DNA from: an uncultured Gemmatimonadales bacterium
GTDB taxonomy: Bacteria; Gemmatimonadota; Gemmatimonadetes; Longimicrobiales; RSA9
NCBI GenBank assembly: GCA_963708135.1
Contig: OY970192.1
Coordinates: 448,001-512,000, forward strand
Direction: 5' to 3'
DNA: 64,000 nt
A program made the position numbers and the translations under genes. Shown here one piece after another: positions 25,724 to 49,324 of this stretch (positions within the stretch are counted from its first letter, which is position 1; each line of letters begins with the position of its first letter). Under the pieces are notes generated by a model. That model did no database searches and had not been told where the DNA came from. It worked only from the letters and a program-made list of their open reading frames with translations.

Positions 25724-25804
25724 CCCATGCGTTGCACGCCACCCCCTCGCCGCGCACGTCGGTCCACAGTCGGATAGTCCTTTCCAGCGTTCCCAGACGG
25801 CGAC

Positions 25805-25935: not shown

Positions 25936-25975
25936 GCGGGCGCAACGTGACAATGGACGGGCGCCGCCGCTGGAT

Positions 25976-28633: not shown

Positions 28634-28656
28634 TGTCGGCCGATCCGCCCGATCTT
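28634..28656 (+). promoter_or_regulatory. Candidate PafBC-type (RecA-NDp-like) promoter of SNF2 helicase
   Basis: TGTCGG-N11-GATCTT (spacing one base longer than consensus) before RBS GAGGAGG. Confidence 0.4.
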
Positions 28657-28683
28657 CGACACGAGCCGTACGAGGAGGATCGG

Positions 28684-30543
28684 ATGAGCGCGAGCACCGC
28701 GGCACCCGCCGCATCCACCCGCCCCGAGGACATCGCGAAGGGGCTCTTCCCGCACCAGGTCGAGGGCGTGGCGTTCCTGCTGCGCCGGCGGCGGGCGATC
28801 CTGGCCGACGACATGGGGCTGGGCAAGACCCGTCAGGCCATCACGGCCCTCAAGGTCGAGGAGCCGGCCGGGCCCTACCTCGTCGTCTGCCCGGCCAGCG
28901 TCAAGCGCAACTGGGAGCGCGAGATCCGCACGGTGCTGCCCGGCGCCGCGGTCCGCATTCTCGGCAGCGGCGCCGACGGCGGAGGCGGGCTGCCGGGCGC
29001 GGAATGGGTCGTCGTCAACTACGACATCCTGAAGCGGCACGAGGCCGCCCTCGCCGCCGCGCCGTGGGCCGGCGTGATCGTGGACGAGGCGCACTACCTC
29101 CGCAACCAGAAGAGCCAGCGCAGCGCGAGCGCGCGCCGGATCGTTGGCGCGCTAAGCGACCCGGTCGTCTACATGCTTACCGGCACGCCGCTGGCCAACC
29201 GCCCGCGCGACCTCTTCGCGCTGCTGCAGCTGGCCGGCCACCCGCTCGGGCGCAGCTTCCTGAGCTACGCCAGGCGCTACTGCGCCGCGTACCGCAACGA
29301 GTGGGGCTGGGTCACCGACGGCGCCTCGAACCTGGAGGAGCTCGCCGTCGAGCTGCAGGGCCTCATGCTGCGGCGCACCAAGGACGAGGTGCTCGAGCTG
29401 CCGCCCAAGCTGCGCACGTGGCTGCCGGTCGAGGTGCCCGACGGCACCGGACGCGACCAGGCCGCCGCCGTCGTCCGCCACCTCCTCGCCGCGCGCGGCA
29501 TCGGCCGGCTCACCGCGCGCGACCGCGACGCCGGCGGCCCCGGCGGCCGCACCCGCCTGCTCGCGACGCTGTCGACGCTCCGCCGCACGCTCGCCGTGGC
29601 CAAGGTCCCGGCCACGCTCGAGCTGGTCGAGGGCGCCGTCGACCAGGGCGAGAAGGTCATCGTCTTCAGCGGCTTCGACGAGCCCGTCCAGCGCATCGCC
29701 GGCCACTTCGGCGATGCCGCCGTCCGCCTCACCGGCGCCACGCCCGCCGGGAAGCGGCAGGAGCTCGTGGACCGGTTCCAATGCGACGATGGCGCGCGCG
29801 TCTTCGTCGCCAACCTCATTGCCGGCGGCGTCGGGCTCAACCTCACCGCCGCCCGGCAGGTCGTCTTCAACGACCTCGACTGGGTCCCCTCCAACCACTG
29901 GCAGGCCGAGGACCGCGCCTACCGCATCGGCCAGACGAACACCGTGCACGTGACCTACGTGGTCGCGGCGGCCACCGCCGACGACTTCGTGCGGAGCGTC
30001 CTCCAGACCAAGTCCCGCCTCATCGACGCCGTCGTGGACGGCGGCGCCGCGGACGAGGGTGCCGCCTCCGGCGACGTCCTATCCGAGCTCGAGCGCCTCC
30101 TCTCCGCGCTGTCCCCCGGGCTTGCGGATACCCGCCCCGACGACCTGTCGGCGGAGGATGTCGCGGCGCTGCTCCGGGATGCCGCCGCCCTTGCCGAAGT
30201 TGGTCGTGCCGAAGTTGGTCGTGCCGGTGTAGGTCGTGCCGGTTCTGGTCGTGCCGGTGTAAGTATTGCCCCCGTTAGCGGTTCAAATCCCCCCACCCCC
30301 GCCATGCTCCACGCCCTCGCCCTCCTCCGCGATGCGCTCCGCGGCCCCGCGCCGACCCGCTACACCTGTGACAGCAGCTCCGGCCGCGGGACGTACGACC
30401 TCGTCGTGGATGCCTCCGGCGACGTCGCCTGCTCCTGCCCCGGCTTCTCCTACCGCGGCGCGTGCAGCCACGCCCGCGCGCTGAAGCAGGCGCTGGTGAG
30501 GGGCGGGGAGCTGCCGGCGGCGTACAGGGCCGTCGAGAGCTGA
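28684..30543 (+). CDS. SNF2-family helicase with C-terminal SWIM zinc finger
   Basis: LADDMGLGKT, VDEAH, LTGTP, LRRTKDEV, GGVGLNLT, QAEDRAYRIGQ; terminal CSCPGFSYRGACSH. Confidence 0.92.
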   Translation: MSASTAAPAASTRPEDIAKGLFPHQVEGVAFLLRRRRAILADDMGLGKTRQAITALKVEEPAGPYLVVCPASVKRNWEREIRTVLPGAAVRILGSGADGGGGLPGAEWVVVNYDILKRHEAALAAAPWAGVIVDEAHYLRNQKSQRSASARRIVGALSDPVVYMLTGTPLANRPRDLFALLQLAGHPLGRSFLSYARRYCAAYRNEWGWVTDGASNLEELAVELQGLMLRRTKDEVLELPPKLRTWLPVEVPDGTGRDQAAAVVRHLLAARGIGRLTARDRDAGGPGGRTRLLATLSTLRRTLAVAKVPATLELVEGAVDQGEKVIVFSGFDEPVQRIAGHFGDAAVRLTGATPAGKRQELVDRFQCDDGARVFVANLIAGGVGLNLTAARQVVFNDLDWVPSNHWQAEDRAYRIGQTNTVHVTYVVAAATADDFVRSVLQTKSRLIDAVVDGGAADEGAASGDVLSELERLLSALSPGLADTRPDDLSAEDVAALLRDAAALAEVGRAEVGRAGVGRAGSGRAGVSIAPVSGSNPPTPAMLHALALLRDALRGPAPTRYTCDSSSGRGTYDLVVDASGDVACSCPGFSYRGACSHARALKQALVRGGELPAAYRAVES

Positions 30544-30554
30544 GCCGGTCGCCG

Positions 30555-30770
30555 GCGTGGGCGGTGGTGTGTGGCGCCATCGCCGCCCACCCGGCGCCGA
30601 GGGGCGTCCGGGCCGCCGATCGAGGGCGTCCCGGGGTCTGCGCCGCGCCCGGGCGCGCGGTGGGCGGTGCGTGGCGTCATCGCCGCCCACCCGGCGCCGA
30701 CGGGCGTCCGGGCCGCCCGCTTGAGGGTGTCCCGGGGTCTGCGCCGCGCCCGGGCGCGTGCGGTGGGCGG
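30555..30770. repeat. ~100-bp direct repeat, two copies
   Basis: catcgccgcccacccggcgccga...cccggggtctgcgccgcgcccgggcgcg occurs twice in tandem. Confidence 0.8.
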
Positions 30771-31019
30771 GGAGCCCGCCGCGCCCGGGTCGCCCGGAGC
30801 CGGCGTCGCCTGGCCGATCATGTTGTTGGATCGTTCACCCACGGCCGCCGCGGCAGGGCGACGGATCCACCGGCCCGAGCGGCTGAACCTGGGTGTGCAA
30901 GGTGGCCGAGCCCGTGATGGACTACGACGACGAGCAGTAGCCACGCCTCGCGCCGCCCCGCCCTGCCGGCCGGGCTCGGCGGACACAAAATGCCAATCGT
31001 CGCGGCTCCAGGCGTCGAT

Positions 31020-31160
31020 TGCGTTTCCTGTACGCTATCCGCACACAATCGACCATGCGTCCGCCCGCGCGCCGGACGCGTGCCGCATCTCGTCCGCATG
31101 GCGTACACGATCCGCCAGGCGCGCATGGGAACGCGGCGGTTGGTCAATTGTGTCCGCCCG
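31020..31160. repeat. 60-bp-period imperfect palindromic array, family A copy 2
   Basis: CTGTACGCTATCCGCACACAAT (31028), TCCGCATGGCGTACACGAT (~31093), TTGTGTCCGCC (31148). Confidence 0.65.
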
Positions 31161-31220
31161 CGCGCGCCGGGGAGCCGACATGTTGTCCGCGTCCACCGAG
31201 GCAGAAGCCGAGTGGGTGTT

Positions 31221-31810
31221 CGGGATCCGGGATGTGGGATGCGGGATCCGTGATGCGGGATGCGGGATCCGGATCCGGGATCCGGGATCCGTGATGCGGG
31301 ATGCGGGATACGGGATGCGGGAGATCGAGCTCGCCGGGCCGGCGGGAGGCGAGCACGATCGCGCAGCCGAGACAGCCCGGACCATCCCGACCGCGATTCG
31401 TCTCGGAAACCGAGCAGAAGTGGGATCCGGCGACGTCGCCGCCGCGCCCGTTGCGCGTTTGTTCTCGGATACCGAGCAAAATCGGGATCCCGGCGGCCGC
31501 CGACGCTTCCATCGGCCGATTTCACTCGGCCCGCCGCGCGGCCCCCCCGGCAGCCTGCAGGCCCCGCCCGGGCCCCGCCCCACGCGCCGCCCCCGCCCCG
31601 CCCGCCCCGCCCCCCGCGCCGCCCCCGCCCCGCCCGCCCCGCCCCCCGCCCGCACCCCGCCCCCCGAGTGGGCGAGTGGGAGACCGGGCGACGCTCCCGG
31701 CGCCCGCGCGTGCGGCGGCCACCACCCCGCGCTCCCCGCACCCCGCATCCCGCCCCGAGCCCCGAGCCCCAAGCCCCGAGCCCCGAGCCCGAGCCCCGAG
31801 CCCCGAGCCT
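31221..31810. repeat. Composite repeat tract: (GGGATSC)n heptamers, 62-bp-period TCGGAWACCGAG palindromes, C-rich run, one GAGTGGG element end, (CCCGAGC)n
   Basis: Directly visible at 31221-31322, 31403/31465, 31560-31660, 31666-31693, 31753-31809. Confidence 0.8.
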
Positions 31811-31819
31811 CGATCCCAC

Positions 31820-31841
31820 TGTCACCCCCCCTCCCCATCTT
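31820..31841 (+). promoter_or_regulatory. Candidate PafBC-type promoter of VWA gene
   Basis: TGTCAC-N10-CATCTT about 40 bp before ATG 31883. Confidence 0.5.
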
Positions 31842-31882
31842 CCCACCTGCACGCCGGCACCGACCCCGAACCCGAGGGCACC

Positions 31883-32668
31883 ATGAACACGCAGCTCCTG
31901 CTCGACCACGAGCCCCGCGCCGACGGCGCCACGCTCGTGCGCGCGCTGCTCCGCGTCACGGGCAGCGCGCCCGCCGACGCGGATCGCGCCCGCCTCAACC
32001 TCGCCCTGGTCCTCGACCGCTCCGGCTCCATGGCGGCGCTGTCCAAGCTGGCGCGGGCGAAGGAGGCGGCGGCGCTCCTGGTGCGGCGATCGGGCGCGGA
32101 GGACGTGGTGAGCGTCGTCGCCTACGACGACGAGGTGCGGACCGTGGCCGCGCGCGTGACGGGCGCCGGGCGCGAGGAGCTGCTCACGCGCATCGGAGAG
32201 CTCGACGCGGGCGGCACCACCAACCTCTCCGGCGGCTGGCTGCGGGGGCGCGAGCTGGTGGCGGAGGGTATCGCGGACGGCGGCGTGAACCGCGTGCTGC
32301 TGCTCACCGACGGCCTCGCCAACGCGGGCATCACCGACCCCGGCCAGCTCCGCGACCTGGTGGCCTCCGCGGCCGCGGCCGGCGTCTCGACCACCACCAT
32401 CGGCTTCGGCGCCGACTACGACGAGGCGCTGCTCCGGCTGCTGGCCGAGGCCGGCGGCGGCAGCACCTACTACATCGAGGAAGGCGACCAGGCGCCGGCC
32501 GTCTTCGCCGCCGAGATCGAGGGGCTCATGGCGCTCGCCGCGCAGAACGTCGCCGTGACCGTGGCGCCCGCGTCGGGCGCCTGGGCCCGCGCGGCGAGCA
32601 ACCTCGCCTCCTTCGAGCCCGTCATGCGCGCCCGGGCCGCGAAGCGGCGGCGCGGGCCGGAGCAGTAG
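31883..32668 (+). pseudogene. VWA-domain protein, C-terminally truncated
   Basis: LNLALVLDRSGSM MIDAS, LLTDGLAN, TTIGFGADYDE; homology to the 24166-24813 C-terminal part is lost after AQNVAVTV. Confidence 0.75.
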
Positions 32669-32711
32669 GCCGGCAGCACCCACGTGGCACGGCGAGGAGC
32701 CAGATTACTGC

Positions 32712-33002
32712 TCAGCGTCGGGACGTTGCGGAGCGCGCCGCGCGCGCATCCTGGATGGTCACGACCTCGACCCGATCGGCCTTTTCGTCGTAGGCAAAGA
32801 CGATCAGCATCCAGCGCCATGGCCCGAGTATGTACCTGAACCCCTCCCAGCGGCCGGTCAGCGCCTCACCGCTTTCGGGGAATTCGGTGAGCTGCCGGAG
32901 TCGTGCCCGAACCCGTGGGTGCGTGTCGCGGGGGAGCTCGAGTCCGCGAATGAGCAGGTCGAGGTCCTCCACGGCCGTGGGGGCGACGACCACCACGGCC
33001 AC
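32712..33002 (-). CDS. RelE/ParE-family toxin
   Basis: VVVAPTAVEDL, LTEFPESG, VEVVTIQDAR; 96 aa, downstream of antitoxin-like gene. Confidence 0.8.
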   Translation of the reverse strand: MAVVVVAPTAVEDLDLLIRGLELPRDTHPRVRARLRQLTEFPESGEALTGRWEGFRYILGPWRWMLIVFAYDEKADRVEVVTIQDARAARSATSRR

Positions 33003-33005
33003 GAC

Positions 33006-33263
33006 TCAGAGCTCGTCCAGAGGAATTCCTTGCCCGGCCCGTGTTTCCCGGAGCCCTCGCCGCGCCCGCTCGTAGGCGCCAGGGATCGCGTCGAGTAGCT
33101 CCACGATCGAGCCCGGATCCGGTGCGGCCTCTTCGATCGCCGTGGACAGCAGGGAACGGGCGAGGGTCCCCGGATTCACGTGCGTCCTCTCGGCCAGCTC
33201 ATGCAGCTTCATGGCGTGTCGCTCGTCGAGCTGGACATTGAATCGGGTCGTCCGTTTGGCCAT
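33006..33263 (-). CDS. Putative antitoxin (ribbon-helix-helix-like)
   Basis: RFNVQLDERHAMKLHELAER; ends RAGQGIPLDEL; 3 bp from the toxin start. Confidence 0.75.
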   Translation of the reverse strand: MAKRTTRFNVQLDERHAMKLHELAERTHVNPGTLARSLLSTAIEEAAPDPGSIVELLDAIPGAYERARRGLRETRAGQGIPLDEL

Positions 33264-33406
33264 GGGTCCGCTCCATGCACGTTTCGTGTTGATCCGTAAC
33301 ATGATGGCACGCGCCGCTCCACGCCAGGTGAGGCGCCCAACGGGCCAACGCCCGACCATGGCACCAGTGCGGCCGAGGAGTTCAGGTCGCGTCCGACGCG
33401 GCGCCT

Positions 33407-33708
33407 TCAGTCCCAGCGCAGGAGAGTCCCGAGCTTCTGGAGGACCTCCGTCACCGCCTCGGCCGGTGCGCGCCCGGCCCGCTCGGCCTGGCGGCCAGCG
33501 CGGGACGGCGCCCGCTCTGCTCGTCAACCATCTGCAGGTTGAATTCCATCCAGACCAGGTCCCCCCGGTCCGCGAACGGCCTGCCACGCCTCACCATGCC
33601 TCCGCGCCAACACCCGGACCCGTGTCGGTCTCCCCGTGCAGGTTCTCGGGCGTGAGGCCGGCCAGTAGCTGGTCGAGCGAGAAAGGAGATTGCGCCAGTG
33701 GCGTGATC
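33407..33708 (-). pseudogene. Decayed mazE-mazF duplicate
   Basis: Matches 24836-25295 (tcagtcccagcgcaggag..., ccgcgccaacacccggacc...) with mazF middle and mazE 5' end deleted. Confidence 0.88.
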
Positions 33709-33776
33709 GCGTGGAGAACGCAAGTGCCTGACGCCGCGGGCGCATGGGCCAGGAGGATGCTCCCTCAAACATATGG

Positions 33777-33805
33777 TTGCGATTCTCCCGACTATGTCCC
33801 ATAAT
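33777..33805 (+). promoter_or_regulatory. sigma70 promoter of pafB-like gene
   Basis: TTGCGA-N17-CATAAT, conserved in the duplicate at 25695. Confidence 0.65.
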
Positions 33806-33887
33806 CCCATGGTCGCGCGGCACCCCCTCGCCGCGCACGCTGTTCCGCACATTCCGACAGCTCTTTTCAGCGTTCCCTGGCGGCGAC

Positions 33888-35015
33888 GTGGCCATCACGA
33901 AGACCCAGCGCTGGCTCGACCTCATCACGTTCCTCGTCCAGCGGCACTTCCCGGTGCCCGTGGACGAGCTCATGGACGGCGTCCCCGCCTACCGCGCCAG
34001 GTGGCGCGCCGGCGATGGGACGGCGCGCGCCACCGTGCACCGCATGTTCGAGCGCGACAAGGACGAGCTGCGCGCCGCGGGCATCCCGATCGAGACGGTG
34101 GAGTACACGATCGAGCACGGCACCGAGCAGGCGACGGGCTACCGCCTGCGCCGCGCCGACTTCTACCTGCCGTACCTGCGGATCGTCCAGAGGAAGACCG
34201 ACGAGGCGGTCCCCGCGTCGGGCGGTCGTGGGAAGCGGAGTGTCCCCGCGTCGGGTGCGGAAGGGCAGGGCGGCACCGGCAGTCTCGATCTGGAGCCCGA
34301 CCAGGCCGTGCTCGCCGTCGACGCGCTCCACCGGGTGGCGGCGCTGCCCGCCTCGCCATTCGCGCGCGACGCCCGCAGCGCCCTCTCCAAGCTCACCTTC
34401 GACCTGGATGGCGACGTCGTCGCCGAAGCGCCCGTGCTCTACGCCGACCCGCCCGGCCCGGCCGGCACGCGCGAGGCGCTCGAGCTCCTCGCCCACGCCC
34501 TCGCCCGGCGCGCGCGCGTGCGCTTCCGCTACCACGGCATCGCGCGCGGGGAGGCCACGGACCGCGACGTCGCCGCGTACGGGCTCCTCTACCAGCATGG
34601 CCAGTGGTACCTGATCGGCCACGACGCGCTGCGGGGCGCCATCCGCGTCTTCCGCGTGGGCCGCATGGAGCGTCCGGAGGCAGGCGACGCGGCGGGCTAC
34701 GAGATCCCCGCGGATTTCGACGTCGCCTCCTACGCCAGGCGCGAGGCGTGGGAGCTGGGCGAGGAGGAGCCGGTGGCGTGCGACGTCCGCTTCGAGTTCC
34801 CGCTCGCCCTCTGGGCCGAGCGGAACGGCAAGGGCGAGCGGGTCGAGGAGCTGCCCGGCGGCGCGGCGGTGCGTCGCTTCCCGGTGCGCCAGCCCGAGGC
34901 GTTCCTGCGCTGGCTGCAGACCTTCCTCGGCGACGCCGTCGTCCTCGCGCCGCCCGCGCTCCGCGCCGCCCAGGCCGACCTCGCCCGCCGCACGGTGGAG
35001 GCGTATGGCGGATAG
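33888..35015 (+). CDS. pafB: PafB-like HTH-WYL-WCX regulator
   Basis: RMFERDKDELRAAGIPIE (PafB signature), ALSKL, WYLIGHDALRGAIRVFRVGRM. Confidence 0.88.
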   Translation: MAITKTQRWLDLITFLVQRHFPVPVDELMDGVPAYRARWRAGDGTARATVHRMFERDKDELRAAGIPIETVEYTIEHGTEQATGYRLRRADFYLPYLRIVQRKTDEAVPASGGRGKRSVPASGAEGQGGTGSLDLEPDQAVLAVDALHRVAALPASPFARDARSALSKLTFDLDGDVVAEAPVLYADPPGPAGTREALELLAHALARRARVRFRYHGIARGEATDRDVAAYGLLYQHGQWYLIGHDALRGAIRVFRVGRMERPEAGDAAGYEIPADFDVASYARREAWELGEEEPVACDVRFEFPLALWAERNGKGERVEELPGGAAVRRFPVRQPEAFLRWLQTFLGDAVVLAPPALRAAQADLARRTVEAYGG

Positions 35016-35027
35016 GGCGCCGTTCTC

Positions 35028-35300
35028 TTATGGCTTGTTCGGCTTCGGTGCCGGCCGGCCGCGCAGCATCCCCTGCACGCTGATATCCTCGTCGACGTCC
35101 GGCCAGTGTGCGCCCTTGCCGTTGCCGATCAGCCGGACATTGGCGCGCTGCTCCGGCGTCGCGCGCGAGAGGCGCCACGACCAGGAAAGTGGGACGCTGA
35201 TGGTGCGGCCATCGGTCAGGACCGCGGTGATCGCGTCGTCGGATACCGAGACGGATGTCATGAGGGGTTCAGGCGTCGCCGCAGTGCTCGGTCCATGCAT
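35028..35300 (-). CDS. DUF2442 family protein (putative TA component)
   Basis: LTDGRTISVPLSWSWRL, ATPEQR, GAHWPDVDEDISV. Confidence 0.88.
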   Translation of the reverse strand: MHGPSTAATPEPLMTSVSVSDDAITAVLTDGRTISVPLSWSWRLSRATPEQRANVRLIGNGKGAHWPDVDEDISVQGMLRGRPAPKPNKP

Positions 35301-35511
35301 GCTGTATCGCCTCCCTATGCCGGGATACGCGCTTCCGGATCCGATTCAGCTCGTGCGCCGAGAAGCCCGCGTTGAACGCGAGGGAAACGGGGTTCAGCCA
35401 GAACTTGCAGGTGGCCCCATCCCGCTCCGCGTGGACATGCATCGCCTCGGCGCAATCGAAGCTGTAGAAAAAGAACCGGTGCGGGCCGAAAATTCCAGGG
35501 ATCGTCGGCAT
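35269..35511 (-). CDS. DUF4160 family protein (putative TA component)
   Basis: MPTI...RFFFYSFD...MHVH...KFWLNPV...GFSAHEL. Confidence 0.88.
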   Translation of the reverse strand: MPTIPGIFGPHRFFFYSFDCAEAMHVHAERDGATCKFWLNPVSLAFNAGFSAHELNRIRKRVSRHREAIQHAWTEHCGDA

Positions 35512-35581
35512 GGTCCGCCACATTGCAGCCGCCGGATGGGCATGTCCATAGCACTGCGGGACGTGGCCCGGGAGCCCCGCC

Positions 35582-36523
35582 ATGCCCGCTGACACCGCGG
35601 GCCAGCGCATCGAGCGCATCCTTCAGATCCTCCCCCTCGCGGCGCGCGAGGGCGGCATCGCGTGGGACGAGCTGGCCGCGCGCCTCGGCGTGGAGCGTCG
35701 CGCCCTCGAGCGCGACCTGGCCGAGGTCACCGACCGCGAGTTCTACCACCCGCCCGCCTCCGCCGACGACATCCAGGTGGGCATCGAGGCCGACCGCATC
35801 CGCGTCTGGACCACCGGCCCGCTGCGCCGCCCGCCCCGCCTCACCGCGGGCGAGGCCGCCGCGCTGGACCTCGGCCTGCGGATCCTGGCCGCCGAGCGCG
35901 AGGACCCCGCCGCCCGCGAGGCCGTGCGCGCCCTGCTCGAGCGCGTCGCCCGGAGCGTCCCCGACGACCTGCTCGACCATGTGGCCGCCGACGGCGACCC
36001 CAATGCAGGAGACGCCATCCGCGCCCTCGCGATCGACGCCGCCCGCCGTCGCCGGCGCTGCCGGATCCGCTACCTCAAGCCCGACGCCGACGCCCCCGAG
36101 GACCGGGAACTCGAGCCGTACGCGATTGTCAGTGCCGGGGGTTACTGGTACGCCCTGGGCCGCTCCCCCGAGCGGGACGCCGTGCGCGCGTTCCGGCTGG
36201 ACCGCATCCTCGAGGTCTCCGTCGGCCCGGAGCGCTTCGACGTCCCGGCCGACTTCGACCCCGCTGACTATCTCGACGGCGGCCGCGTCTACCGCGCCGA
36301 CGAGGAGGTCGAGGTGGTCGTCCGCTACAGCCCCCGCGTCGCCCCCTGGCTCCGCGAGCGCGGCGAGGGCGAGGCGCAGGAGGACGGCAGCGTGTTGGTG
36401 CGGTACCGCGTCGCGGACCCGGGCTGGGTGGTGCGGCATGTGGCGGGGTATGGCGGGGAGGCGGAGGTGGTGGGGGAGCGGCCAATGATCGCCGCAGCTT
36501 CCCTGAAGGGTGATCCGCGTTGA
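35582..36523 (+). CDS. pafC: PafC-like HTH-WYL-WCX regulator; extreme C-terminus appears replaced
   Basis: RIERILQILP, ELAARLGV..ERDL, RPPRLTAGEA, YWYALG, VRAFRLDRI; composition changes after EAEVVG (~36478). Confidence 0.85.
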   Translation: MPADTAGQRIERILQILPLAAREGGIAWDELAARLGVERRALERDLAEVTDREFYHPPASADDIQVGIEADRIRVWTTGPLRRPPRLTAGEAAALDLGLRILAAEREDPAAREAVRALLERVARSVPDDLLDHVAADGDPNAGDAIRALAIDAARRRRRCRIRYLKPDADAPEDRELEPYAIVSAGGYWYALGRSPERDAVRAFRLDRILEVSVGPERFDVPADFDPADYLDGGRVYRADEEVEVVVRYSPRVAPWLRERGEGEAQEDGSVLVRYRVADPGWVVRHVAGYGGEAEVVGERPMIAAASLKGDPR

Positions 36524-36761
36524 GCGAGGGAGAAGTGGCCGCCGCGGTTTGGTTCGCCAGCGAGGCACTGAAGGAGCAGCACTTCTCGTTTATCACCCGG
36601 TCCGGCGTGGTCGAGCGGGCGTACCGTCTCCGTATCTACAACGCGCCTACTGCGGCGGCAGGGGCAGATGCGGACCAGCGCGCCGACCGCTCTCCCAGCG
36701 CGCCGGAACCAAGCCCTCGCCCCGGCGGGAAGGCATTGTCGCCCTTGCTGTGGGAATAGGA

Positions 36762-39700: not shown

Positions 39701-42197
39701 AGATGCGGCCGCCATTCCACCGACATTGCGTGTGGGGCGCATTCCGCCTTTGGTGGAAAGTGTGCGCGAACTCCACCGTCTTTGGAAAGCCCTCAACGAA
39801 GACCAGACCGCTGCGCGTGTTCTCGACGGACGGCTGCGTGAGGCGATTGACGACTTCGGACCCGTCGTCGCCACGCTCGCATTCCACGCTGATCTCGTCG
39901 CGTCAAATTTGTTGCCGCCGCTGAAACAGTGGCTCCTCGAGGCGGATGTGCTATCACGCTTGGCCACGTTGCGAGAGGTGGCGAGCGACGCGGGCCGCCT
40001 GGCCGTGGACTTCCAAGGAGCCTGGACGCGTCTCGAGAACCTGGCCGCGCTGGACCGTGCGGCGTGGTATCCTGATCTGGAAGTGGAACGCCAGGACGAC
40101 TTGAACAGCGTCAAGAGTAGAGCGGCGCGAGCGCTGGACGGACGCGATCGCCTCTTAGAGTGGTTGGACTATTTGCAGGCCAGGACTGCTGCGCGTGCTG
40201 CCCACCTGAACGCGATCGTCGAGGTGGGCGAGGCCGGAACCGTGACAGCGGACCAGCTCGTGCTCGCCTTCGATTTCATCCTGAGTAATTCCCTCGTGAA
40301 GGCCGCGTTTCGGCAGAAACCGGCTCTCGCTCAATTCAGCGGCCTCACGCATGAGCAACTTCGCGTGCGGTTCGGCGAGGTCGACCGCGAGATCATCAAG
40401 CTCGAGAGAGAGCGAGTAGGCGCACTTCTCGATCAGCGTCGCGTACCCATGGGAGTCGGAACTGGGCCGGTCAGGCAGTACAGCGAATACTCCCTCCTTG
40501 AACGAGAGATGGGGAAGCAGAAGCGACATATCCCCATACGACAGCTCATCTTGCGATCCGGCAAGGCACTCCAAGCTCTCAAACCGTGTTTCATGATGGG
40601 CCCGCTATCCGTCGCGCAGTACTTGCCGGCGGGCCAGCTCGAGTTCGACCTGCTGGTGATGGACGAAGCGTCGCAGCTCAAGCCCGAGGACGCCCTCGGT
40701 GCAATTTGCCGGGCCAAGCAAGTCGTCGTGGTCGGCGATCCGATGCAGTTGCCGCCGACGAGCTTCTTCGAACGAGTAGCTGACGACGACGAAGTGGAAG
40801 ATGAGAATGAGGCGCAGGCGCTGACGGATGCCGAGAGCATTCTCGATGTTGCCAGCCACCTCTATAGGCCGGCGCGGATGCTCCGGTGGCATTACCGGTC
40901 GCGGCACGGCAGCTTGATCGCTTTCTCGAATAGAGAATTTTATAACGGGAATCTCATTGTCTTTCCCTCCCCTTTGGGGCGTGGTCCGGAACTTGGCGTC
41001 AAGTTCGTTCATGTGCCGCACGCGGTTTACGAGAACCGCCGAAATGTCGTGGAGGCACGGACGGTCGTGGACCGAGTGTTCAGACACATGCGGAAGTACC
41101 CGGGGGACTCCCTGGGCATCGCGACCATGAACACGACTCAGCGAGACGTAATCGCGAATGAGATCGAGGAGCGGCTGAAGGCAGATCCTGCAGCAAAGGC
41201 ATACGTCGAGCGGCACGAAGGGGGGCTAGAGCCGCTCTTCGTCAAGAACCTCGAAAACGTTCAGGGCGATGAACGGGCAGTAATCTACGTCTCTGTCACC
41301 TACGGCCCGAATGAGAGGGGCAGCGTCTACCAGCGCTTCGGTCCAATCAATGGAGCCACTGGGCATCGTCGCTTGAACGTGCTCTTCACGCGCGCGCGTA
41401 AGCGCTTAGTCGTCTTTTCTTCCCTGCTTTCGGACCAGATCCGCGTCGAGTCAAACAGTAGGTGGGGAGTCCGGGCGCTGAAGGGCTATCTTGCCTTTGC
41501 ACAGACCGGTGTGCTTGAGCAGGCCAGCTTTACCGGCCGCGAGCCTGATTCTGACTTCGAGGTAGAGGTTGCCTCCGCGTTGCGTGAGCGGGGATTCGAG
41601 GTTGTTGCCCAGCTCGGGGTGGCCGGCTTCTTCCTTGATTTAGCCGTCAAACACCCCTACCGGCTGGACTCGTTCATTCTCGGCATCGAATGCGACGGAG
41701 CGAGCTACCATAGCACGCGTTCGGCTCGTGATCGCGACCGTCTTCGTCAACAGATCCTCGAGGATCTTGGGTGGAAGATCCGCCGGATCTGGTCCCCGGA
41801 TTGGTTCAAGAATTCCGGAGCGGAAGTCGAGCGGATTGTTCGTGAAATCGAGGAGCTTGCGGGGGAGCCGCCGACAGAAGGGACGGATGAAGGGCTGAGC
41901 GTCGGCGGTGAGGAGATCCAGGAGCCCGGAAGCGAAGCGCTCCTTCCGGCTCTATCGGTCGAAGAGGCGAGGGCTGAGCTGATCGCGCTACGGGAAAAGG
42001 TGATCAAGCCGGCCAATGCGCGAGAATCCGAATGTATCCTTCGAGATGAGATGATCACGGCGTTTCTTGCACAGCGGCCGCGTGATCGGAGTGAATGGAT
42101 CGACAGGATACCCATTGATCTCCGTATGGAGACTGACTTCTCTCAAACAGAATACCTAGACGCTATACTCTCTATAACCGGTAGGATTCGCAGTTGA
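36762..42197 (+). CDS. DUF4011-SF1 helicase-Vsr/MTES_1575-like nuclease (Hhe-type defence protein)
   Basis: LLDPSNRNRLLNF, IEETGTNMLY, DADASQ, QGPPGTGKSQTI, MDEASQ, HYRSRH, NLENVQGDER, RRLNVLFTRAR, GIECDGASYH, RDRDRLRQ; lower GC. Confidence 0.92.
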   Translation: MPNSTDDREQPQGGDFFKGDIRSGLETIRRRLLDPSNRNRLLNFRHRDRSKSMLRVVDEVPDHVFSVLLDGKSMRFRPVPQPRRQDWVLDGPEGSGDNGHTPRAYQAPRLKPPTAREFAEKNGIPTSFDLSTKAYTKGDRLPARHADREMQTLHFPEDLEGVLRSIAGAARLAIEETGTNMLYVAMGFLEWYDSDASDQARFAPVVLFPARLERGAPDPQTHVYRYSVQHSGEDILANISLQEKMRRDFALEFPDFDQEEDTPEHYFQVLDLIIKRHGRWRVRRQMTLALLAFGKLLMYRDLDPDTWPQGKRPENHPRLREFFEGIQQEEIGIAPDYPLDGLQPRGRIPIIIDDADASQHSALIDAVEGKNLVIQGPPGTGKSQTITNLIAVTIAAGKSVLFVAEKLAALEVVRDRLNRAGLGIFCLELHSHRTRKRALIEDIKARIEAHGQFREPDRLRGLREFWERTKRQLIEYAELVNSPWGQLGNTIHELLWWCRRRKTELAKTDALERLTLRNATSITAAEAEERRQLLRALGRHLTRVSSTGAVSQHPWFGVTNAGLDFLSADALIAAVEEVYRAAGSLLEWRAGVESEIGAEVAATPRAAVDLAQSAAALPGPPDGILPDILPALNEPSVARHLEEFDTRLREYRDLRATIVGELGGLPSWDPTMRGRLSEAVSTLLNVLKRDWQFKDERGVVDQLTGASGAIRTAWVAAEKLSRCVGEVVPFTTGSIRLLAEAFEGLSHAPVSLLHLRHEGLESVSAPGALEAALREAAPLLNMRDRLSQRFALELAPEPAAMRRHAAAVATSHWWSFIDPAFRSARSAYLTMYRDRGKPKRAEIKSDLQEFAAFQARVQGFAANRSYQEVGGKHFRGIDTPFADLEAVTRWRGEMARRLPPGSGDVDLGYALWRTGSDRLGPLAAEAGDLAALVARARNGIGAASELLKQSYAPASDKDLREFSSDLASTCARLTLAIEVLDAAAIPPTLRVGRIPPLVESVRELHRLWKALNEDQTAARVLDGRLREAIDDFGPVVATLAFHADLVASNLLPPLKQWLLEADVLSRLATLREVASDAGRLAVDFQGAWTRLENLAALDRAAWYPDLEVERQDDLNSVKSRAARALDGRDRLLEWLDYLQARTAARAAHLNAIVEVGEAGTVTADQLVLAFDFILSNSLVKAAFRQKPALAQFSGLTHEQLRVRFGEVDREIIKLERERVGALLDQRRVPMGVGTGPVRQYSEYSLLEREMGKQKRHIPIRQLILRSGKALQALKPCFMMGPLSVAQYLPAGQLEFDLLVMDEASQLKPEDALGAICRAKQVVVVGDPMQLPPTSFFERVADDDEVEDENEAQALTDAESILDVASHLYRPARMLRWHYRSRHGSLIAFSNREFYNGNLIVFPSPLGRGPELGVKFVHVPHAVYENRRNVVEARTVVDRVFRHMRKYPGDSLGIATMNTTQRDVIANEIEERLKADPAAKAYVERHEGGLEPLFVKNLENVQGDERAVIYVSVTYGPNERGSVYQRFGPINGATGHRRLNVLFTRARKRLVVFSSLLSDQIRVESNSRWGVRALKGYLAFAQTGVLEQASFTGREPDSDFEVEVASALRERGFEVVAQLGVAGFFLDLAVKHPYRLDSFILGIECDGASYHSTRSARDRDRLRQQILEDLGWKIRRIWSPDWFKNSGAEVERIVREIEELAGEPPTEGTDEGLSVGGEEIQEPGSEALLPALSVEEARAELIALREKVIKPANARESECILRDEMITAFLAQRPRDRSEWIDRIPIDLRMETDFSQTEYLDAILSITGRIRS

Positions 42198-42380
42198 AGG
42201 GCGCCGCTCGCGTGACCCGGAACCGCTTTATAATATGACGCACCGCCCTCTTGTGGGCGAAGGTGGGAGGCGTCCTCTGGCCAGGCAGCTTATCTCTTGC
42301 GTGATTCGCCGTTGGACGGTTAAGTGATCGGGGTGTTATCGTCGGTCGTATTCTATTCCTCAAATAGCTGGAGGCTACCG

Positions 42381-42935
42381 ATGAAGGTCTGCCCTTACTG
42401 CGCAGAAGAAGTGCAGGACGCGGCCGTCGTGTGCCGCCATTGCGGGCGTGCCCTGAAGGCCGGAAAGAGCAGAACGCTGCGTGGCATCGTGGGCAGTGGC
42501 GTCCTCATCGTGCTGCTTGGGATCGGGGGGCTGACCCTCCTCCGGGGCACGATTCAGCGTTCGCCTCTCGGCCATCTCGTCGTTACGCTGACGCCGGGCG
42601 AATCCGAAATTGCTCCACGGAACTACATGGAGTGGGCTTGGAGCGTTGACCCCCGCCGCCCCGACTGCCACGTCCATGCCGGCTTTCATGGGGTGGCAGG
42701 CGGGAACCGTGATTTCGAAGTCTATCTCTTCGACGGCAATGGCATGACCAACTGGAAGAACGGAACCCATCCGACCACATACTATAGCTCCGGCCGGGTT
42801 TCGGCTGCCACCGTGGATGCTGACATCCAGGGCAACGGACCAAAGTACCACCTCGTTGTGTCCAACGCCTTCTCTGTCGTCAGTTCAAAGACCGTCGAAC
42901 TCACGAGCGGACAGGTTACCTGCAGCGCTTTCTAA
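42381..42935 (+). CDS. Zinc-ribbon + single TM + extracytoplasmic beta-sandwich protein
   Basis: MKVCPYCAEE...CRHCG, hydrophobic segment, YHLVVSNAFS; GGAGG RBS. Confidence 0.8.
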   Translation: MKVCPYCAEEVQDAAVVCRHCGRALKAGKSRTLRGIVGSGVLIVLLGIGGLTLLRGTIQRSPLGHLVVTLTPGESEIAPRNYMEWAWSVDPRRPDCHVHAGFHGVAGGNRDFEVYLFDGNGMTNWKNGTHPTTYYSSGRVSAATVDADIQGNGPKYHLVVSNAFSVVSSKTVELTSGQVTCSAF

Positions 42936-43017
42936 AACCACTGGCGGTCTTGCTGCGGCACGCGCTTGCCGACGGCTTCTTCTCCGCCGCGACGAACCTT
43001 GCAGGGGGGTGAGGCAG

Positions 43018-43935
43018 ATGGCCGAGCCGTTGGACTTTGACCTCCGCCTCCGCCTCGCGGTCTTTGCCCACGTGGACAACCTCCGTCGGAAGGGCGGCGG
43101 CGTGGTCACCTCGGCCGCCCTTAACGAAGGCTTCACCTTCGAGGGCGAGCGGGTCCCGATCTGGAACTACCAGAAGGGCATTTTCCGCCCGGCGGCCCTC
43201 CGCGACAGCGGCGTCGCCCTCACCGTCCAGACCTCCTTCAAGAGCCCATATGCGGACCGCAGCGACGCCGGCGACGACCGGTTCGTCTACAAGTACCGGG
43301 GCAAGAACCCGGACCACCCGGACAACGTCGCCTTGCGACGTGCGATGGAGACGCGGCGGCCGATCCTCTACCTCGTCGCCGTCCAGCCGGGCGTGTACCA
43401 GCCGATCTTCCCGACGTACGTGGTGGGCGACGTGCCGGAGCAGCTCTCCTTCCTGCTGATCGCGGACACGATCGGCGCGGTCGCGGCCGGGGCGCTGGAC
43501 CCCGCCGATGACTGGCCGCTGAAGGCGTACGTGACGCGCGAGGTGAAGGCGCGGCTGCACCAGCATCGCTTCCGCTACCTGGTGCTGCGGGCGTACCGGG
43601 AGCGGTGTGCGATGTGTCGCCTGCGGCACCCGGAGCTGCTCGATGCGGCGCACATCCGGCCGGACCGGGACGTGAGCGGGCTGCCGGAGGTGCCGAACGG
43701 GCTCGCGCTGTGCCGGATCCACCACGGCGCGTTCGACGTGGGGATCGTGGGCGTGGACGCGGACTACCGGGTGCACGTGCGAGGGGACGTGCTGGAGGAG
43801 ATCGACGGGCCGATGCTACGCCACGGGCTGCAGGAGCTCGACCGCGCGCGCCTCGCCGTGCCGCGCTCCGGGCGGCTCCAGCCCAACCGCGAGTACCTGG
43901 CGGAGCGGTTCGAGCGGTTCCGGAAGGCGGGGTGA
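43018..43935 (+). CDS. HNH endonuclease with SRA-like N-terminal domain (putative modification-dependent restriction)
   Basis: YKYRGKNPDHPDNVALRRAM, RLHQHRFR, CAMC, LDAAHI, NGLALCRIHHGAFD. Confidence 0.88.
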   Translation: MAEPLDFDLRLRLAVFAHVDNLRRKGGGVVTSAALNEGFTFEGERVPIWNYQKGIFRPAALRDSGVALTVQTSFKSPYADRSDAGDDRFVYKYRGKNPDHPDNVALRRAMETRRPILYLVAVQPGVYQPIFPTYVVGDVPEQLSFLLIADTIGAVAAGALDPADDWPLKAYVTREVKARLHQHRFRYLVLRAYRERCAMCRLRHPELLDAAHIRPDRDVSGLPEVPNGLALCRIHHGAFDVGIVGVDADYRVHVRGDVLEEIDGPMLRHGLQELDRARLAVPRSGRLQPNREYLAERFERFRKAG

Positions 43936-44063
43936 GGGCGAAGTCTGCCCGGCGGTTCCTCGCGTCCAGCTGAGCCTCCCGCCTTGATAGAGTCGGGCCC
44001 CGGCGTGCATGTTGTGGCCCGTCGGTGACTCGCGCCGGACAACGAAAGGACCCGAGAGCCCTG

Positions 44064-44363
44064 ATGCGCAGCCTTCCAATCGAGATCCCGCTCGGCCGAC
44101 TGGCCGATATCTGCCGGAGGTATCGGATCGCCCGGCTGGCGGTGTTCGGCTCGGTGCTGCGGGAGAGCTTCGGCCCGGAAAGCGATGTTGACGTGCTCGT
44201 CGAGTTCGAGCCGGGCCATACTCCCGGATTTGAGTTCTTCGCCATCCAGGAGCAGTTGGCGGGGCTGCTCGGACGGCCGGTGGATCTCCACACGCCTGCG
44301 TTCCTCAGCCCGTACTTCCGCGACGAGGTGCAGAGAGACGCTGAAGTCCTCTATGCCGCCTGA
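44064..44363 (+). CDS. Minimal nucleotidyltransferase (MNT) antitoxin
   Basis: LAVFGSVLR...ESDVDVLVEF, GRPVDL. Confidence 0.92.
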   Translation: MRSLPIEIPLGRLADICRRYRIARLAVFGSVLRESFGPESDVDVLVEFEPGHTPGFEFFAIQEQLAGLLGRPVDLHTPAFLSPYFRDEVQRDAEVLYAA

Positions 44364-44691
44364 CGAAGTCCGCCTCCGGCACATGCTCGACGCGGCCCGA
44401 AAGGCGGTCTCGTTCGCCCACGGGCGTACGCGCGCCGATCTCGACAGCGACGAGCAGCTCGCGCTCGCCCTCGTGCGTCTCCTCGAGATCCTCGGAGAGG
44501 CGGCGAAACAGGTCGGGAGCGCAACCCGCGACGCGCACGCGGATATTCCCTGGAAAGAGATCGCCGGCACCCGCGATCGACTGATCCACGGTTACTTCAA
44601 CGTTGACCTCGATGTGGTGTGGACGATCGTCGATTCGGACTTGCCACCGCTCGTGCGACGACTCGAGGACCTCATCGGGCCCGAGGCCTGA
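44353..44691 (+). CDS. HEPN (DUF86) RNase toxin
   Basis: LEILGEAA, IPWKEIAGTRDRLIHGYF (RX4HXY); overlaps MNT gene. Confidence 0.92.
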   Translation: MPPDEVRLRHMLDAARKAVSFAHGRTRADLDSDEQLALALVRLLEILGEAAKQVGSATRDAHADIPWKEIAGTRDRLIHGYFNVDLDVVWTIVDSDLPPLVRRLEDLIGPEA

Positions 44692-44717
44692 TGTCCGGGA
44701 GCGCGCGGCAGACTAGC

Positions 44718-45131
44718 ATGGCATCAGAGCGAAGGGACCGATCCGGTGCCTGCGCGTTCTGCCACCCCTCCACCCCCATCCTCCGCGCCCAAGACACGGC
44801 CCTCGCCTTCGCGGACGCCTTCCCCGTCTCCCCCGGCCACACCCTCGTCGTCCCCACCCGCCACGTGGCGAGCCTCTTCGAGCTGGCGCCGGACGAGTGG
44901 GACGCGGTCTGGCGGCTCGTCGCCGAAGTTCGGCGGGACCTCGCCGCGGCGGGCGGCATCGACGGCTTCAACATCGGCGTCAACGATGGCGCTGCGGCGG
45001 GGCAGACGGTCGGTCACGCGCACGTCCACATCATCCCGCGCCGCATGGGGGACGTCCCGGATCCGCGCGGAGGCATCCGGGCCGTGATCCCCGAACGAAC
45101 GGCGTGGTGGGCGGATGACGCCCCTGCGTAG
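44718..45131 (+). CDS. HIT family nucleotide hydrolase
   Basis: CAFC, FPVSPGHTLVVP, AAGQTVGHAHVHIIPR. Confidence 0.92.
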   Translation: MASERRDRSGACAFCHPSTPILRAQDTALAFADAFPVSPGHTLVVPTRHVASLFELAPDEWDAVWRLVAEVRRDLAAAGGIDGFNIGVNDGAAAGQTVGHAHVHIIPRRMGDVPDPRGGIRAVIPERTAWWADDAPA

Positions 45132-46305
45132 CCGCCACGCGGACGAGCGCGGGCCGATCGCGCTCGCCGAGAAGATCCTCGCCCTGCTCGACGAGGGCCG
45201 CTTCACGGCCACGTACAAGTACGCCGTGCTGCTCGCGCTCATGGACGTCTGTCTCGAGAACACCTCCGCGACGGGCGCGGCGCCGGAGATGATCACCACA
45301 CGACAGCTCGCCGAGGCCGTCGTCAACATCTACTGGCCGCATACCGCTCCCTTCCGGATCGCGCCCTCGCCGAAGGTGCTCCTCCAGAACGCGGGGCGAC
45401 GCGAGAGTCAGGCGGAGATCATCCGCGCCATTGCGGTCTTCCGGCACAGGAGCGCGCCCGATCCGTCCACGCCCCTGCTGCGGGCCCGGACGGGAGCGCG
45501 TGCGGCCTTCGAGCGGCTCCTCCGCACGGTCGAATGGAAGCTGATCGAGATGCCGCTGCCGAGGCTCCAGCGGTTCGGTCGACGCGAGGACCGGTTCCTC
45601 TACTCGATCGGCTGGGATCAGCACATTCGCGTTGGCGAGGTCCGCGAGTACCAGAAGGGAAGCCGGAGCTCGTTCGACAACCGGATCCACCTCGCCCCCG
45701 GCGTCGGCGATGGCCTCGTCGTGCTGAACGGGCTCCTGCGGCCGTTGATCCACCGGCAGTGGGCGGGGCTCGTCGCCCGGCTGAACGGACTCGAGGAGTC
45801 GCGGCTCGAGGAGTTCCTCTTCGGCCCCCGCCGAATTCCACTCGACCCGGTGCGATTGCCGCTCCAGGAGCTGCAGGCCGACCGGTGCTTCTATTGTGGG
45901 GAGCGACTTCGCGACGCAGATGGTTATCGGCCGCACGTCAACCATTTCGTGCCATGGGCGAGGTACCCGAACAACGCGATCGAAAACCTGGTCGTGGCGC
46001 ACGAGCGGTGCAACACCAACAAGCGCGATCACCTCGCGGCGGCGGATCACGTCGAGCGCTGGCGGTCGCGTTTCGGGGATTCGAGCGGCGGGGCGGGTGC
46101 CGTCGCCGACATCGCCTCGAGGGCCGGATGGGAAACCGACCCCGAGCGGAGTCTCGGGGTGGCACGCGGCGTGTACCTGCCGCTGCCGGAGGCGTTTCCG
46201 CTGTGGCTGCGGACCGAGATGTTCGTGCCCTGTGACCGCGAGCAGGTGGCCTCCGCGCTCGCGGATAGCCACCCTTCTCCAGACATCGAGCGCCCATACG
46301 GCTGA
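45115..46305 (+). CDS. HNH endonuclease coupled to HIT gene
   Basis: ATYKYAVLLAL, CFYCG, HVNHFVPW, NLVVAHERCN; overlaps HIT 3' end. Confidence 0.85.
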   Translation: MTPLRSRHADERGPIALAEKILALLDEGRFTATYKYAVLLALMDVCLENTSATGAAPEMITTRQLAEAVVNIYWPHTAPFRIAPSPKVLLQNAGRRESQAEIIRAIAVFRHRSAPDPSTPLLRARTGARAAFERLLRTVEWKLIEMPLPRLQRFGRREDRFLYSIGWDQHIRVGEVREYQKGSRSSFDNRIHLAPGVGDGLVVLNGLLRPLIHRQWAGLVARLNGLEESRLEEFLFGPRRIPLDPVRLPLQELQADRCFYCGERLRDADGYRPHVNHFVPWARYPNNAIENLVVAHERCNTNKRDHLAAADHVERWRSRFGDSSGGAGAVADIASRAGWETDPERSLGVARGVYLPLPEAFPLWLRTEMFVPCDREQVASALADSHPSPDIERPYG

Positions 46306-46306
46306 A

Positions 46307-46612
46307 ATGGACTACGACCTCCGCCTCCGCCTCGCCGTCTTCGCTCACGTCGACCGCCTCCGGACCCAGGAGGGCGGCGTCGTCACCGCCGCGGCCCTCA
46401 ACGAGGGCCTGCTCTTCGAGGGCGAACGCATCCCGATCTGGAACCAGCAGAAGGGGATCTTCCGGCCGGCGGCCCTCCGCGACAGCGGCATCGCGCTCAC
46501 CGTCCAGACGTCGTTCAGGAGTCCGTACGCGGATCGCGCCGAGGCGGGCGACGATCGGTTCGTCTACAAGTACCGTGGGCGGGATCCGGAGCATCCGGAC
46601 AACGTCGCCTTG
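46307..46612 (+). pseudogene. 5' fragment of a second SRA-HNH copy
   Basis: MDYDLRLRLAVFAHVD...PDNVAL, closely matching 43033-43335. Confidence 0.9.
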
Positions 46613-46691
46613 GGAGAGATTGAGCCTGGCCGCGCGGATTCCCGCCATTCGGGGTGCGGGTTTACGGCGAGAGCGGCGTGGTACGGGACAT

Positions 46692-46713
46692 TGTCGTTGC
46701 ACGGTTGTATAGT
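46692..46713 (+). promoter_or_regulatory. Candidate PafBC-type (RecA-NDp-like) promoter
   Basis: TGTCGT-N10-TATAGT, 17 bp before ATG 46731. Confidence 0.55.
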
Positions 46714-46730
46714 AGGCGCTCACCTGTCCC

Positions 46731-47678: not shown

Positions 47679-48136
47679 TCCCGGAGGGGCTGGTGCTCCT
47701 GGACACGGCCGTTCTGATCCAGCTCGTGCGCGGAAATGCGGCTGGGCGGAAGATCGACCAGCAGCTGGAGCTGTCGGCGCGCAGTGACCGTCCCCTGATC
47801 TCGGTGGTGACCGTCGGAGAAGTTCGCGCTTTTGCGCTCAAGCTGGGTTGGGGTGAAGCGAAGCAGCGGCAGCTCACCGAGCTCGTTCGCCAACTCGTTA
47901 TCCTCGACATCAGGGACGATGCAGTTCTCGCGCGCTACGCGGAGATCGATTACTACTCCGAGCGTGAGGTGAAGCCGGCGCGGCCGATCGGACAGAACGA
48001 CACCTGGATTGCCGCCTCGGCGTCCGTCTACGAGGCTCACCTCATTACCTCCGACAACGATTTCGACCATCTCGTACCGCGCTTCATCTCGCGGACGAAG
48101 GTGGACGCCGGTACGGGCGAGGTCGTCGATTCATGA
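47675..48136 (+). CDS. PIN-domain (VapC-like) ribonuclease
   Basis: LLDTAVLI, ISVVTVGE, IGQNDTWIAASA, LITSDNDFDHL. Confidence 0.9.
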   Translation: MIPEGLVLLDTAVLIQLVRGNAAGRKIDQQLELSARSDRPLISVVTVGEVRAFALKLGWGEAKQRQLTELVRQLVILDIRDDAVLARYAEIDYYSEREVKPARPIGQNDTWIAASASVYEAHLITSDNDFDHLVPRFISRTKVDAGTGEVVDS

Positions 48137-48182
48137 AGGCGGAGTGGTTCGCGGGCCCGCTTCACGACCGCCATGATCCGGG

Positions 48183-48218
48183 CCGCACGTCCATGTCATT
48201 CCGCGCCGGACGGGGGAT
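48183..48218 (+). pseudogene. Tiny HIT relic
   Basis: Translates PHVHVIPRRTGD, versus AHVHIIPRRMGD in the intact HIT gene. Confidence 0.55.
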
Positions 48219-48385
48219 GGGGGGATCTACCTGCCGCTACCCACCGAATTCCCCCTGTGGGTGAGCAGCCGGAAGTTCGTGGGCTCCGAGCCGGAGCTGC
48301 TCGGGCAGTTGCTGGCCTAGGACTCTGCGATGGCTCGTCGTGCACAGGAGGTCCGCATGCCGCGTAGCGGTGGCGTGGTCGAATC

Positions 48386-49315: not shown

Positions 49316-49324
49316 ACAGCGTCC

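Follow-up and report, generated by a model that had tools for sequence, protein, structure and literature searches.

PafBC and its reprogramming of RNA polymerase, by sigma adaptation at RecA-NDp (-26/-10) promoters, have so far been described for Actinobacteria. The system there consists of two paralogous genes, usually adjacent, whose products each combine a winged helix-turn-helix (wHTH) with a WYL and a WCX domain (PMC8635444, PMC11804915, PMC6789036). According to PMC8635444, the helix-turn-helix (HTH) of Mycobacterium smegmatis PafB reads a GTC triplet through residues R46 and R50, the HTH of PafC contacts region 4 of the sigma factor, and the in vivo motif is tGTCgg(N10)tA(N3)T. HTH-WYL-WCX architectures are widespread among phyla (PMC6789036). 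Two further kinds of WYL regulator are relevant for comparison. SiwR of M. smegmatis, also a WYL protein, regulates the transcription of neighbouring genes in response to stress, but it acts as a single protein and not as a B/C pair (PMC10693628), and the CapW/BrxR-type repressors are WYL-WCX proteins that are located beside defence genes and sense single-stranded DNA (ssDNA) (PMC11662680).

Here we describe a stretch of 64,000 nucleotides (the window) from an uncultured Gemmatimonadales bacterium, bases 448001 to 512000 of its single-contig genome (5.45 Mb, 72% GC), that carries a pafB-like and a pafC-like gene and, at window position 31820, a candidate promoter of the PafBC type. From sequence comparison we consider it probable that the window holds a Gemmatimonadota PafB/PafC activator with a cognate promoter class, rC-TGTCA(C/G)ACCCC-N5-tAnnnT, and a small regulon, represented here by one promoter and an eroded module. 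A full-text literature search found no paper on PafBC together with Gemmatimonadetes or Gemmatimonad*.

A PafB/PafC-type regulator pair in Gemmatimonadota

An earlier note on this DNA had assigned the two regulator genes (Table 1) to PafB and PafC from short signatures in their translations. Their Pfam domains and their closest solved relatives bear this out. Among all solved structures the best match of the product of 33888-35015 is M. smegmatis PafB (7p5x_AY, E = 2.6e-20), and the best solved relatives of the product of 35582-36523 are the PafC half of a fused PafBC (6sj9, 6.8e-21) and PafC itself (7p5x_AX, 4.6e-13). In HMMER alignments, R52 and R56 of the window PafB take the places of M. 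smegmatis R46 and R50. The ssDNA-binding residues given in PMC11804915 are R181, Y196, R204, R208, R211, and R214 of PafB and R201 and R204 of PafC; those of PafB correspond, in this order, to R226, Y241, R249, R253, R256, and R259 of the window protein, and counterparts of both PafC residues are present in the window PafC. All of 25 PafB-like sequences share R56, R226, and R259, and the conservation of R52 and Y241 is 90% or higher. The pair thus resembles actinobacterial PafBC in keeping both the GTC-reading arginines and the arginines and tyrosine of the WYL domain.

Almost all named relatives of the window PafB come from metagenome-assembled genomes of Gemmatimonadota; the next nearest belong to a Vulgatibacter (32% identity) and to Actinomycetota (approximately 30 to 33%). 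A search of the entire 5.45-Mb genome, whose completeness is 97.65%, with the Pup ligase profile PF03136 gave no match, and a Corynebacterium control genome was positive. Given these relatives and the missing ligase, the earlier statement that the pair lies outside Actinobacteria and without pafA holds, and it can be extended from the window to the genome. By these comparisons, a true PafB/PafC-type pair is present here that, unlike actinobacterial PafBC, has no Pup ligase in its host and so no linkage to a pafA/Pup-proteasome locus. For comparison we used 110 fetched pafB loci and 151 genomes sampled from the phylum. In nearly all of the relatives' loci a PafC match follows closely on the PafB match; the two window genes are 566 nt apart.

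The same genome encodes a second PafBC, a natural PafB-PafC fusion of 816 amino acids (aa) at G000:C1:5101214-5103664 (L031:7215-9665, minus strand), with two WYL domains, two WCX domains, and HTH_PafC. A fused form also exists in Arthrobacter. The PafB part of the 816-aa protein is 38 to 42% identical to the window PafB, and its gene adjoins Cas_GSU0053 and RAMP genes and PIN/Phd toxin-antitoxin pairs. In the 18-kb locus of this fusion, no site of the TGTCACACCCC type reaches 13 bits on the weight matrix described below.

A putative promoter class with an extended -26 element

The candidate promoter at 31820 precedes a gene for a protein with a von Willebrand factor A (vWA) domain. In 10 of the 13 loci that hold a vWA homologue, a TGTC-N12-NANNNT string lies no more than 130 nt from the expected start, and the extension that these strings share is striking. 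We built a weight matrix from the 10 orthologous vWA-upstream sites. Scanned over the whole genome, it finds a sole strong match, the site at 31820 (21.7 bits), the next one reaching 12.5 bits and lying in coding DNA; a search of the genome with an IUPAC pattern returned no strict match and one relaxed match, again at 31820. With its homologous position kept in most vWA loci, its mycobacterial spacing, and its extended element found once in the genome, this site is the one for which the earlier reading as a PafBC-style promoter survives.

The consensus in a logo of 49 non-redundant sites is rC-TGTCA(C/G)ACCCC-N5-tA-N3-T, with nothing conserved at the location of a -35 element. In geometry, the predicted class matches the mycobacterial -26/-10 PafBC promoter, which likewise has TGTC, N12, and tAnnnT and no -35; the element itself differs, being TGTCA(C/G)ACCCC instead of tGTCgg. 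At 8 of 53 sites, by a naive first-open-reading-frame rule, the hexamer is followed at a distance of 6 to 7 nt by a start codon, a sign of leaderless transcripts from what would be a -10 element.

The same element could also be an operator, at which the pair represses transcription and from which it is released on binding ssDNA, as in CapW/BrxR-type regulation. ssDNA-sensing WYL repressors exist (PMC11662680), and a small, local regulon in which the regulator gene is itself often a member is typical of autoregulated repressors. CapW and BrxR, however, are homodimers, whereas the window encodes a PafB/PafC-like pair, both members of which resemble PafB and PafC more than they do the other solved WYL regulators, and the defence genes beside it belong to a secondary insertion. 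The element, moreover, is non-palindromic and sits a fixed 10 nt from the -10 in promoters without a -35, which is the signature that PMC8635444 gives for activator-dependent hybrid promoters. Repression is, on balance, an unlikely reading.

Counts of the pattern TGTCASACCC-N7-ANNNT point to a class that follows the regulator through the phylum. In 70 Gemmatimonadota pafB loci (900 kb) it has 31 matches, with none for the reversed pattern, and at least one match in 23 of the loci; 10 pafB loci from other phyla have none. The whole genomes of five relatives contain 10 matches against 0 for the control, and the 151 sampled genomes contain 100 against 23, with 0 to 7 per genome. Calling a genome pafB-positive at E <= 1e-20, which applies to 39 of the 151 including this one, and combining the motif and pafB tables by reading, we found 69 matches (control, 5) in the 38 other pafB-positive genomes, 30 of which have at least one, and 31 matches (control, 18) in the 112 pafB-negative genomes.

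Several observations weigh against assigning this class to the pair. A match is present in 25 of the 112 genomes without detected pafB, and 8 of the 38 pafB-positive genomes are without any. Because 10 of the sites served to build the matrix, matrix scan counts and the logo are partly circular, the logo at positions within the matrix and not at those outside it. The IUPAC counts have a reversed-pattern control, but the pattern was derived from the same sites in the same phylum; related genomes in all these counts are not independent, and one of the 151 genomes counted, G057, is marked as unpublished; it contributes 3 matches and 1 control match. The site at 31820 itself departs from the class, with C at position +6, where 47 of 49 sites have A, and with the hexamer CATCTT instead of TAnnnT. 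In PafC, the sigma-contacting Asp/Glu of actinobacteria (D62) aligns with Gln, in a part of the alignment that is gapped. Finally, both PafC and the vWA target are truncated in this genome, and it may be that nothing is regulated here any more.

The matches in genomes without pafB would suit an origin of the motif in some other factor, such as an alternative sigma factor or an unrelated regulator, with shared ancestry or neighbourhood accounting for the link to pafBC. We think this very unlikely. There are 1.8 matches per genome with pafB against 0.28 per genome without it, no more than 5 kb separates 23 of the 69 matches from pafB on the same contig, and in several loci a site stands directly before pafB. 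The invariant GTC also fits the conserved arginines that read this triplet, and a 10-nt spacing is unlike that of -35/-10 sigma promoters.

Genes behind the predicted promoters

Of all window proteins, tblastn against the 110 loci finds only two that recur beside pafBC, the vWA protein and the product of ORF (open reading frame) 24166-24813, and in the relatives these two form one gene of 416 to 433 aa. The vWA gene is also the most frequent one behind the predicted sites (11 loci). ARPP-1 (PF20208) follows a site in three loci (L002, L034, and L037), and pafB follows its own site in L017, L062, L094, and L117, as confirmed by Pfam, and in L068, L078, and L083 by position. Further genes behind sites encode PEGA-domain, outer membrane protein (OMP) beta-barrel, Smr, RNase_T exonuclease, DUF4236, and TY-Chap3 proteins, as well as several without a known family.

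The three ARPP-1 genes (L002:136-1242, L034:1073-2161, and L037:6697-7854) lie just upstream of pafB, each with its own TGTCACACCC promoter, and in L034 and L037 a second TGTCACACCC promoter lies between the ARPP-1 gene and pafB. These three loci are from the relatives closest to the clade of the window PafB. In L039 (12134-12900), and with identical sequence in L005, a TGTCACACCC-N-TATGAT site is located directly downstream of pafC, and a gene for an RNase_T-family exonuclease starts 6 nt past its hexamer, which suggests a leaderless transcript and a nuclease within the putative regulon of some relatives.

An AlphaFold model of a full-length, 421-aa vWA orthologue (predicted local distance difference test score, 82.5; 13-row alignment) is closest in fold to Sulfolobus ArnB (8s05; 5a8j) and to the 426-aa Catenulispora vWA protein 4fx5, with Sec23/24 next. 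The model aligns over its full length with ArnB and 4fx5, through the vWA domain, the beta-sandwich, and the helical domain (Foldseek E values of 3e-22 and 1.5e-19), at 18 to 20% sequence identity. Its look-alikes in the Atlas are mainly from Actinomycetota.

The regulon predicted from these sites is small and mostly local, and includes neither recA nor a broad set of repair genes. In this it differs from that of actinobacterial PafBC, which comprises about 150 genes against 0 to 7 sites per genome here; the targets are vWA, ARPP-1, and pafB and not recA, and the proteins share about 30 to 33% identity with their actinobacterial counterparts. That the pair binds these sites, that it activates rather than represses, and that ssDNA is the trigger we infer from homology. 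By analogy with M. smegmatis, ssDNA would bind in the WYL groove of PafB; the heterodimer would then insert between region 4 of sigma-70 and the -26 element, with the PafB HTH reading the GTC triplet, and transcription would start about 7 nt after the -10. In the phylum as a whole, the pair would drive the ArnB/Sec23-24-like vWA protein, ARPP-1, pafB, and a few envelope or nuclease genes, but not recA.

We lean slightly toward the wider proposition that sigma adaptation by PafB/PafC extends past Actinobacteria, to Gemmatimonadota pairs that would have no link to Pup, a TGTCACACCCC -26 element at mycobacterial spacing, and an ssDNA-induced vWA/ARPP-1 regulon distinct from an SOS or repair response. 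If this is true, a second phylum with the same pair and geometry but with another element and another, small regulon would make the mechanism older or more mobile than thought, would offer a natural specificity variant for structural work, and would draw attention to a vWA/ARPP-1 stress module that is as yet uncharacterised.

An eroded module in this genome

Three kinds of damage mark the module in the window. Its vWA target gene is cut short, two antisense genes stand between pafB and pafC, and PafC lacks its terminal helix. Coordinates are collected in Table 1.

Table 1. Features of the window, in window coordinates
Feature	Position	Strand	Description
pafB-like gene	33888-35015	+	375 aa, GTG start, wHTH-WYL-WCX; Pfam WYL and WCX
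pafC-like gene	35582-36523	+	313 aa; Pfam HTH_PafC, WYL, and WCX (positions 2-59 of 76)
Putative PafBC-type promoter	31820-31841	+	TGTCAC (-26-like), 10-nt spacer, CATCTT (-10-like); 41 nt before ATG at 31883
Truncated ArnB/Sec23-24-like vWA gene	31883-32668	+	Residues 1-232 of a 421-aa protein, intact metal ion-dependent adhesion site (MIDAS), then about 29 unrelated codons
Second, broken vWA copy	23892-24813	+	Residues 72-162 (23892-24164), then 213-419 in another frame (24160-24792)
Duplication	23839-25943 (copy 1)	+	About 2 kb; copy 2 at 31465-34026
Predicted pafB promoter	33777-33805	+	Ordinary sigma-70 type, TTGCGA-17-CATAAT; kept in both duplicate copies
DUF2442 and DUF4160 genes	35028-35523	-	35028-35261 and 35269-35523, between pafB and pafC; Pfam
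TGTCGG-N11-GATCTT string	28634-28656	+	Before SNF2-SWIM gene 28684-30543; judged a chance match
TGTCGT-N10-TATAGT string	46692-46713	+	Before 315-aa/PIN operon; also reads GGGACA-17-TATAGT
Lower-GC defence island	36475-49547	+	About 13 kb; 60-70% GC vs 72-76% in flanks; Pfam, NCBIfam, PADLOC
Hhe-like helicase-nuclease gene	36510-42197		Island gene
Two HNH_2/phosphorothioated-DNA (PT-DNA) restriction-like genes	43018-43935, 48386-49315		Island genes
MNT/HepT; HNH; HIT; zinc-ribbon protein	44064-44691 (MNT/HepT); 45115-46305 (HNH)		Island genes
315-aa gene and PIN gene	46731-48136		Island operon

What had been described as a vWA gene does encode a vWA domain (Pfam VWA, 7.4e-16), but tblastn with full-length orthologues covers only the first 232 of 421 residues. 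The C-terminal half of the protein is found in the second, broken copy, where ORF 24166-24813 covers that part (repeat families D2 and D14). Both vWA copies belong to a diverged, direct duplication. Most of its repeat families (D2, D3, D5, D11, D14, D16, and D19) are 84 to 92% identical and the outermost 72%, and blastn aligns 223 of 260 positions as identical. Copy 1 holds the vWA fragment, an intact mazF/mazE pair (24836-25419, minus strand), and the pafB promoter with the first 43 or so codons of pafB (25677-25943), this PafB fragment being 73% identical over residues 2 to 57. Copy 2 contains the complete pafB along with mazEF remnants (33403-33711) and, on the minus strand, a ParE-like pair (32712-33263). 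Between the copies lie genes with SEC-C (26249-28324) and SNF2-SWIM domains. Directly upstream of the putative vWA promoter, short tandem repeats rich in G or C form three blocks (31207-31336, 31562-31666, and 31754-31817), with GGGATNC-like 7-mers, CCCCGCC-like units, and GAGCCCC 7-mers; the other duplicate copy is without this DNA.

The window pafB promoter was checked for a TGTC element at PafBC spacing and has none. In the closest relative (L033), the DUF2442/DUF4160 pair, at 79 to 85% identity, is located after pafC and not between the two regulator genes. The window PafC is 71% identical to that of L033 up to residue 297; its last 16 residues are unrelated to the orthologues, and the terminal WCX helix, present in 15 of 15 orthologues, is lost at about position 36475. 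This loss coincides exactly with a drop in GC content and with the start of a defence island, which, by these marks, is inserted into the 3' end of pafC.

The loose motif and the adjoining defence island

The earlier note had combined TGTC strings at 28634, 31820, and 46692 into a larger proposal, in which the pair activates the SNF2-SWIM helicase, the vWA gene, and the 315-aa/PIN operon, a defence regulon that DNA damage or phage infection would induce. The three strings stand as written, all of them in sense orientation upstream of genes, and WYL regulators of defence systems are known. The motif in its loose form, however, is at chance. The window contains 11 copies of TGTCR-N12/13-ANNNT, whereas shuffled sequence gives 8.38 ± 3.00 and 23 of 100 shuffles reach 11. 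In upstream regions genome-wide, based on 4393 genes called by codon usage in this analysis, TGTCRN-N10/11-NANNNT has 26 matches in sense and 33 in antisense orientation, and the narrower TGTC-N12-TANNNT has 3 and 4, not above permuted tetramers. The genome contains recA and two lexA genes, and no TGTC-N11-14-NANNNT string lies upstream of any of the three. The postulated damage-inducible defence regulon is not upheld by these results, and they show no sign of a DNA-repair regulon.

Neither of the two sites outside the vWA locus has the ACCCC extension that is near-invariant in the 49 sites, and both score below 8 bits on the matrix. The spacer at the SNF2 site is 11 nt long, its box reads GATCTT, and the TGTC motif is absent upstream of the closest SNF2-SWIM orthologue (L123, 62% identity, same family); we take this site to be a chance match and not a PafBC promoter. 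A conserved synteny of SNF2-SWIM with pafBC, as is said to exist for M. tuberculosis pafBC, was considered and rejected, since none of the 110 pafB loci contains an SNF2 or SEC-C match. The 3' part of the SNF2-SWIM gene contains five tandem 15-nt repeats (30177-30270), 71 to 91% identical to the reference copy.

The site at 46692, with a good TATAGT box, is likely a real promoter, one of only two sigma-70-like promoters found between 28300 and 47000. TGTC-N12/13-[TC]ANNNT occurs in 4 of 11 orthologous upstream regions of its gene against 0.27 expected from shuffles, a comparative signal for the PafBC type that we consider weak. The extension is missing, and the promoter is probably an ordinary one.

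The SNF2 and vWA genes had been counted among the island genes. Both in fact lie in high-GC DNA upstream of pafB, and the island begins at about 36475. Its insertion truncated pafC, and this damage argues against a co-evolved control of island genes by the pair. The island does not look like a client of pafC; the locus is an eroded copy beside a defence island and not the controller of it. Taken together, these findings make the defence-regulon proposal highly improbable, and we retain the interpretation of a PafB/PafC activator with the vWA-type promoter class.

The largest island protein, similar to Hhe, matches NF042953 with 1674.8 bits over positions 2 to 1796 of 1797, under the cut-off of 2000, and the PADLOC models Hhe and PDC-S37 with 1149 and 1304 bits. 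We classify it, from these scores, as a close relative of the Hhe anti-phage protein and not as a certified member. The 315-aa protein has no family match in Pfam, NCBIfam, or PADLOC, and none in five genomes of other phyla (reached via L100, L103, L104, L106, and L109) or in 401 genomes of Actinobacteria, the phylum of one of those five. These genomes were searched with the possibility in view that its promoter might be a PafBC promoter imported from actinobacteria.

At the right edge of the island, the ORF 49548-50156 matches an ADP-ribosylglycohydrolase profile at positions 118 to 287 of 287 and looks 5'-truncated. It was considered as an ancestral partner of ARPP-1, but has no match in the 110 pafB loci, and such a role remains speculation. 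Elsewhere in the window, tandem 169-nt repeats occupy 20673 to 21677, with inner copies that are 97 to 98% identical; they lie inside ORF 20539-22473, whose product has a weak Phenol_MetA_deg match at its C-terminus.

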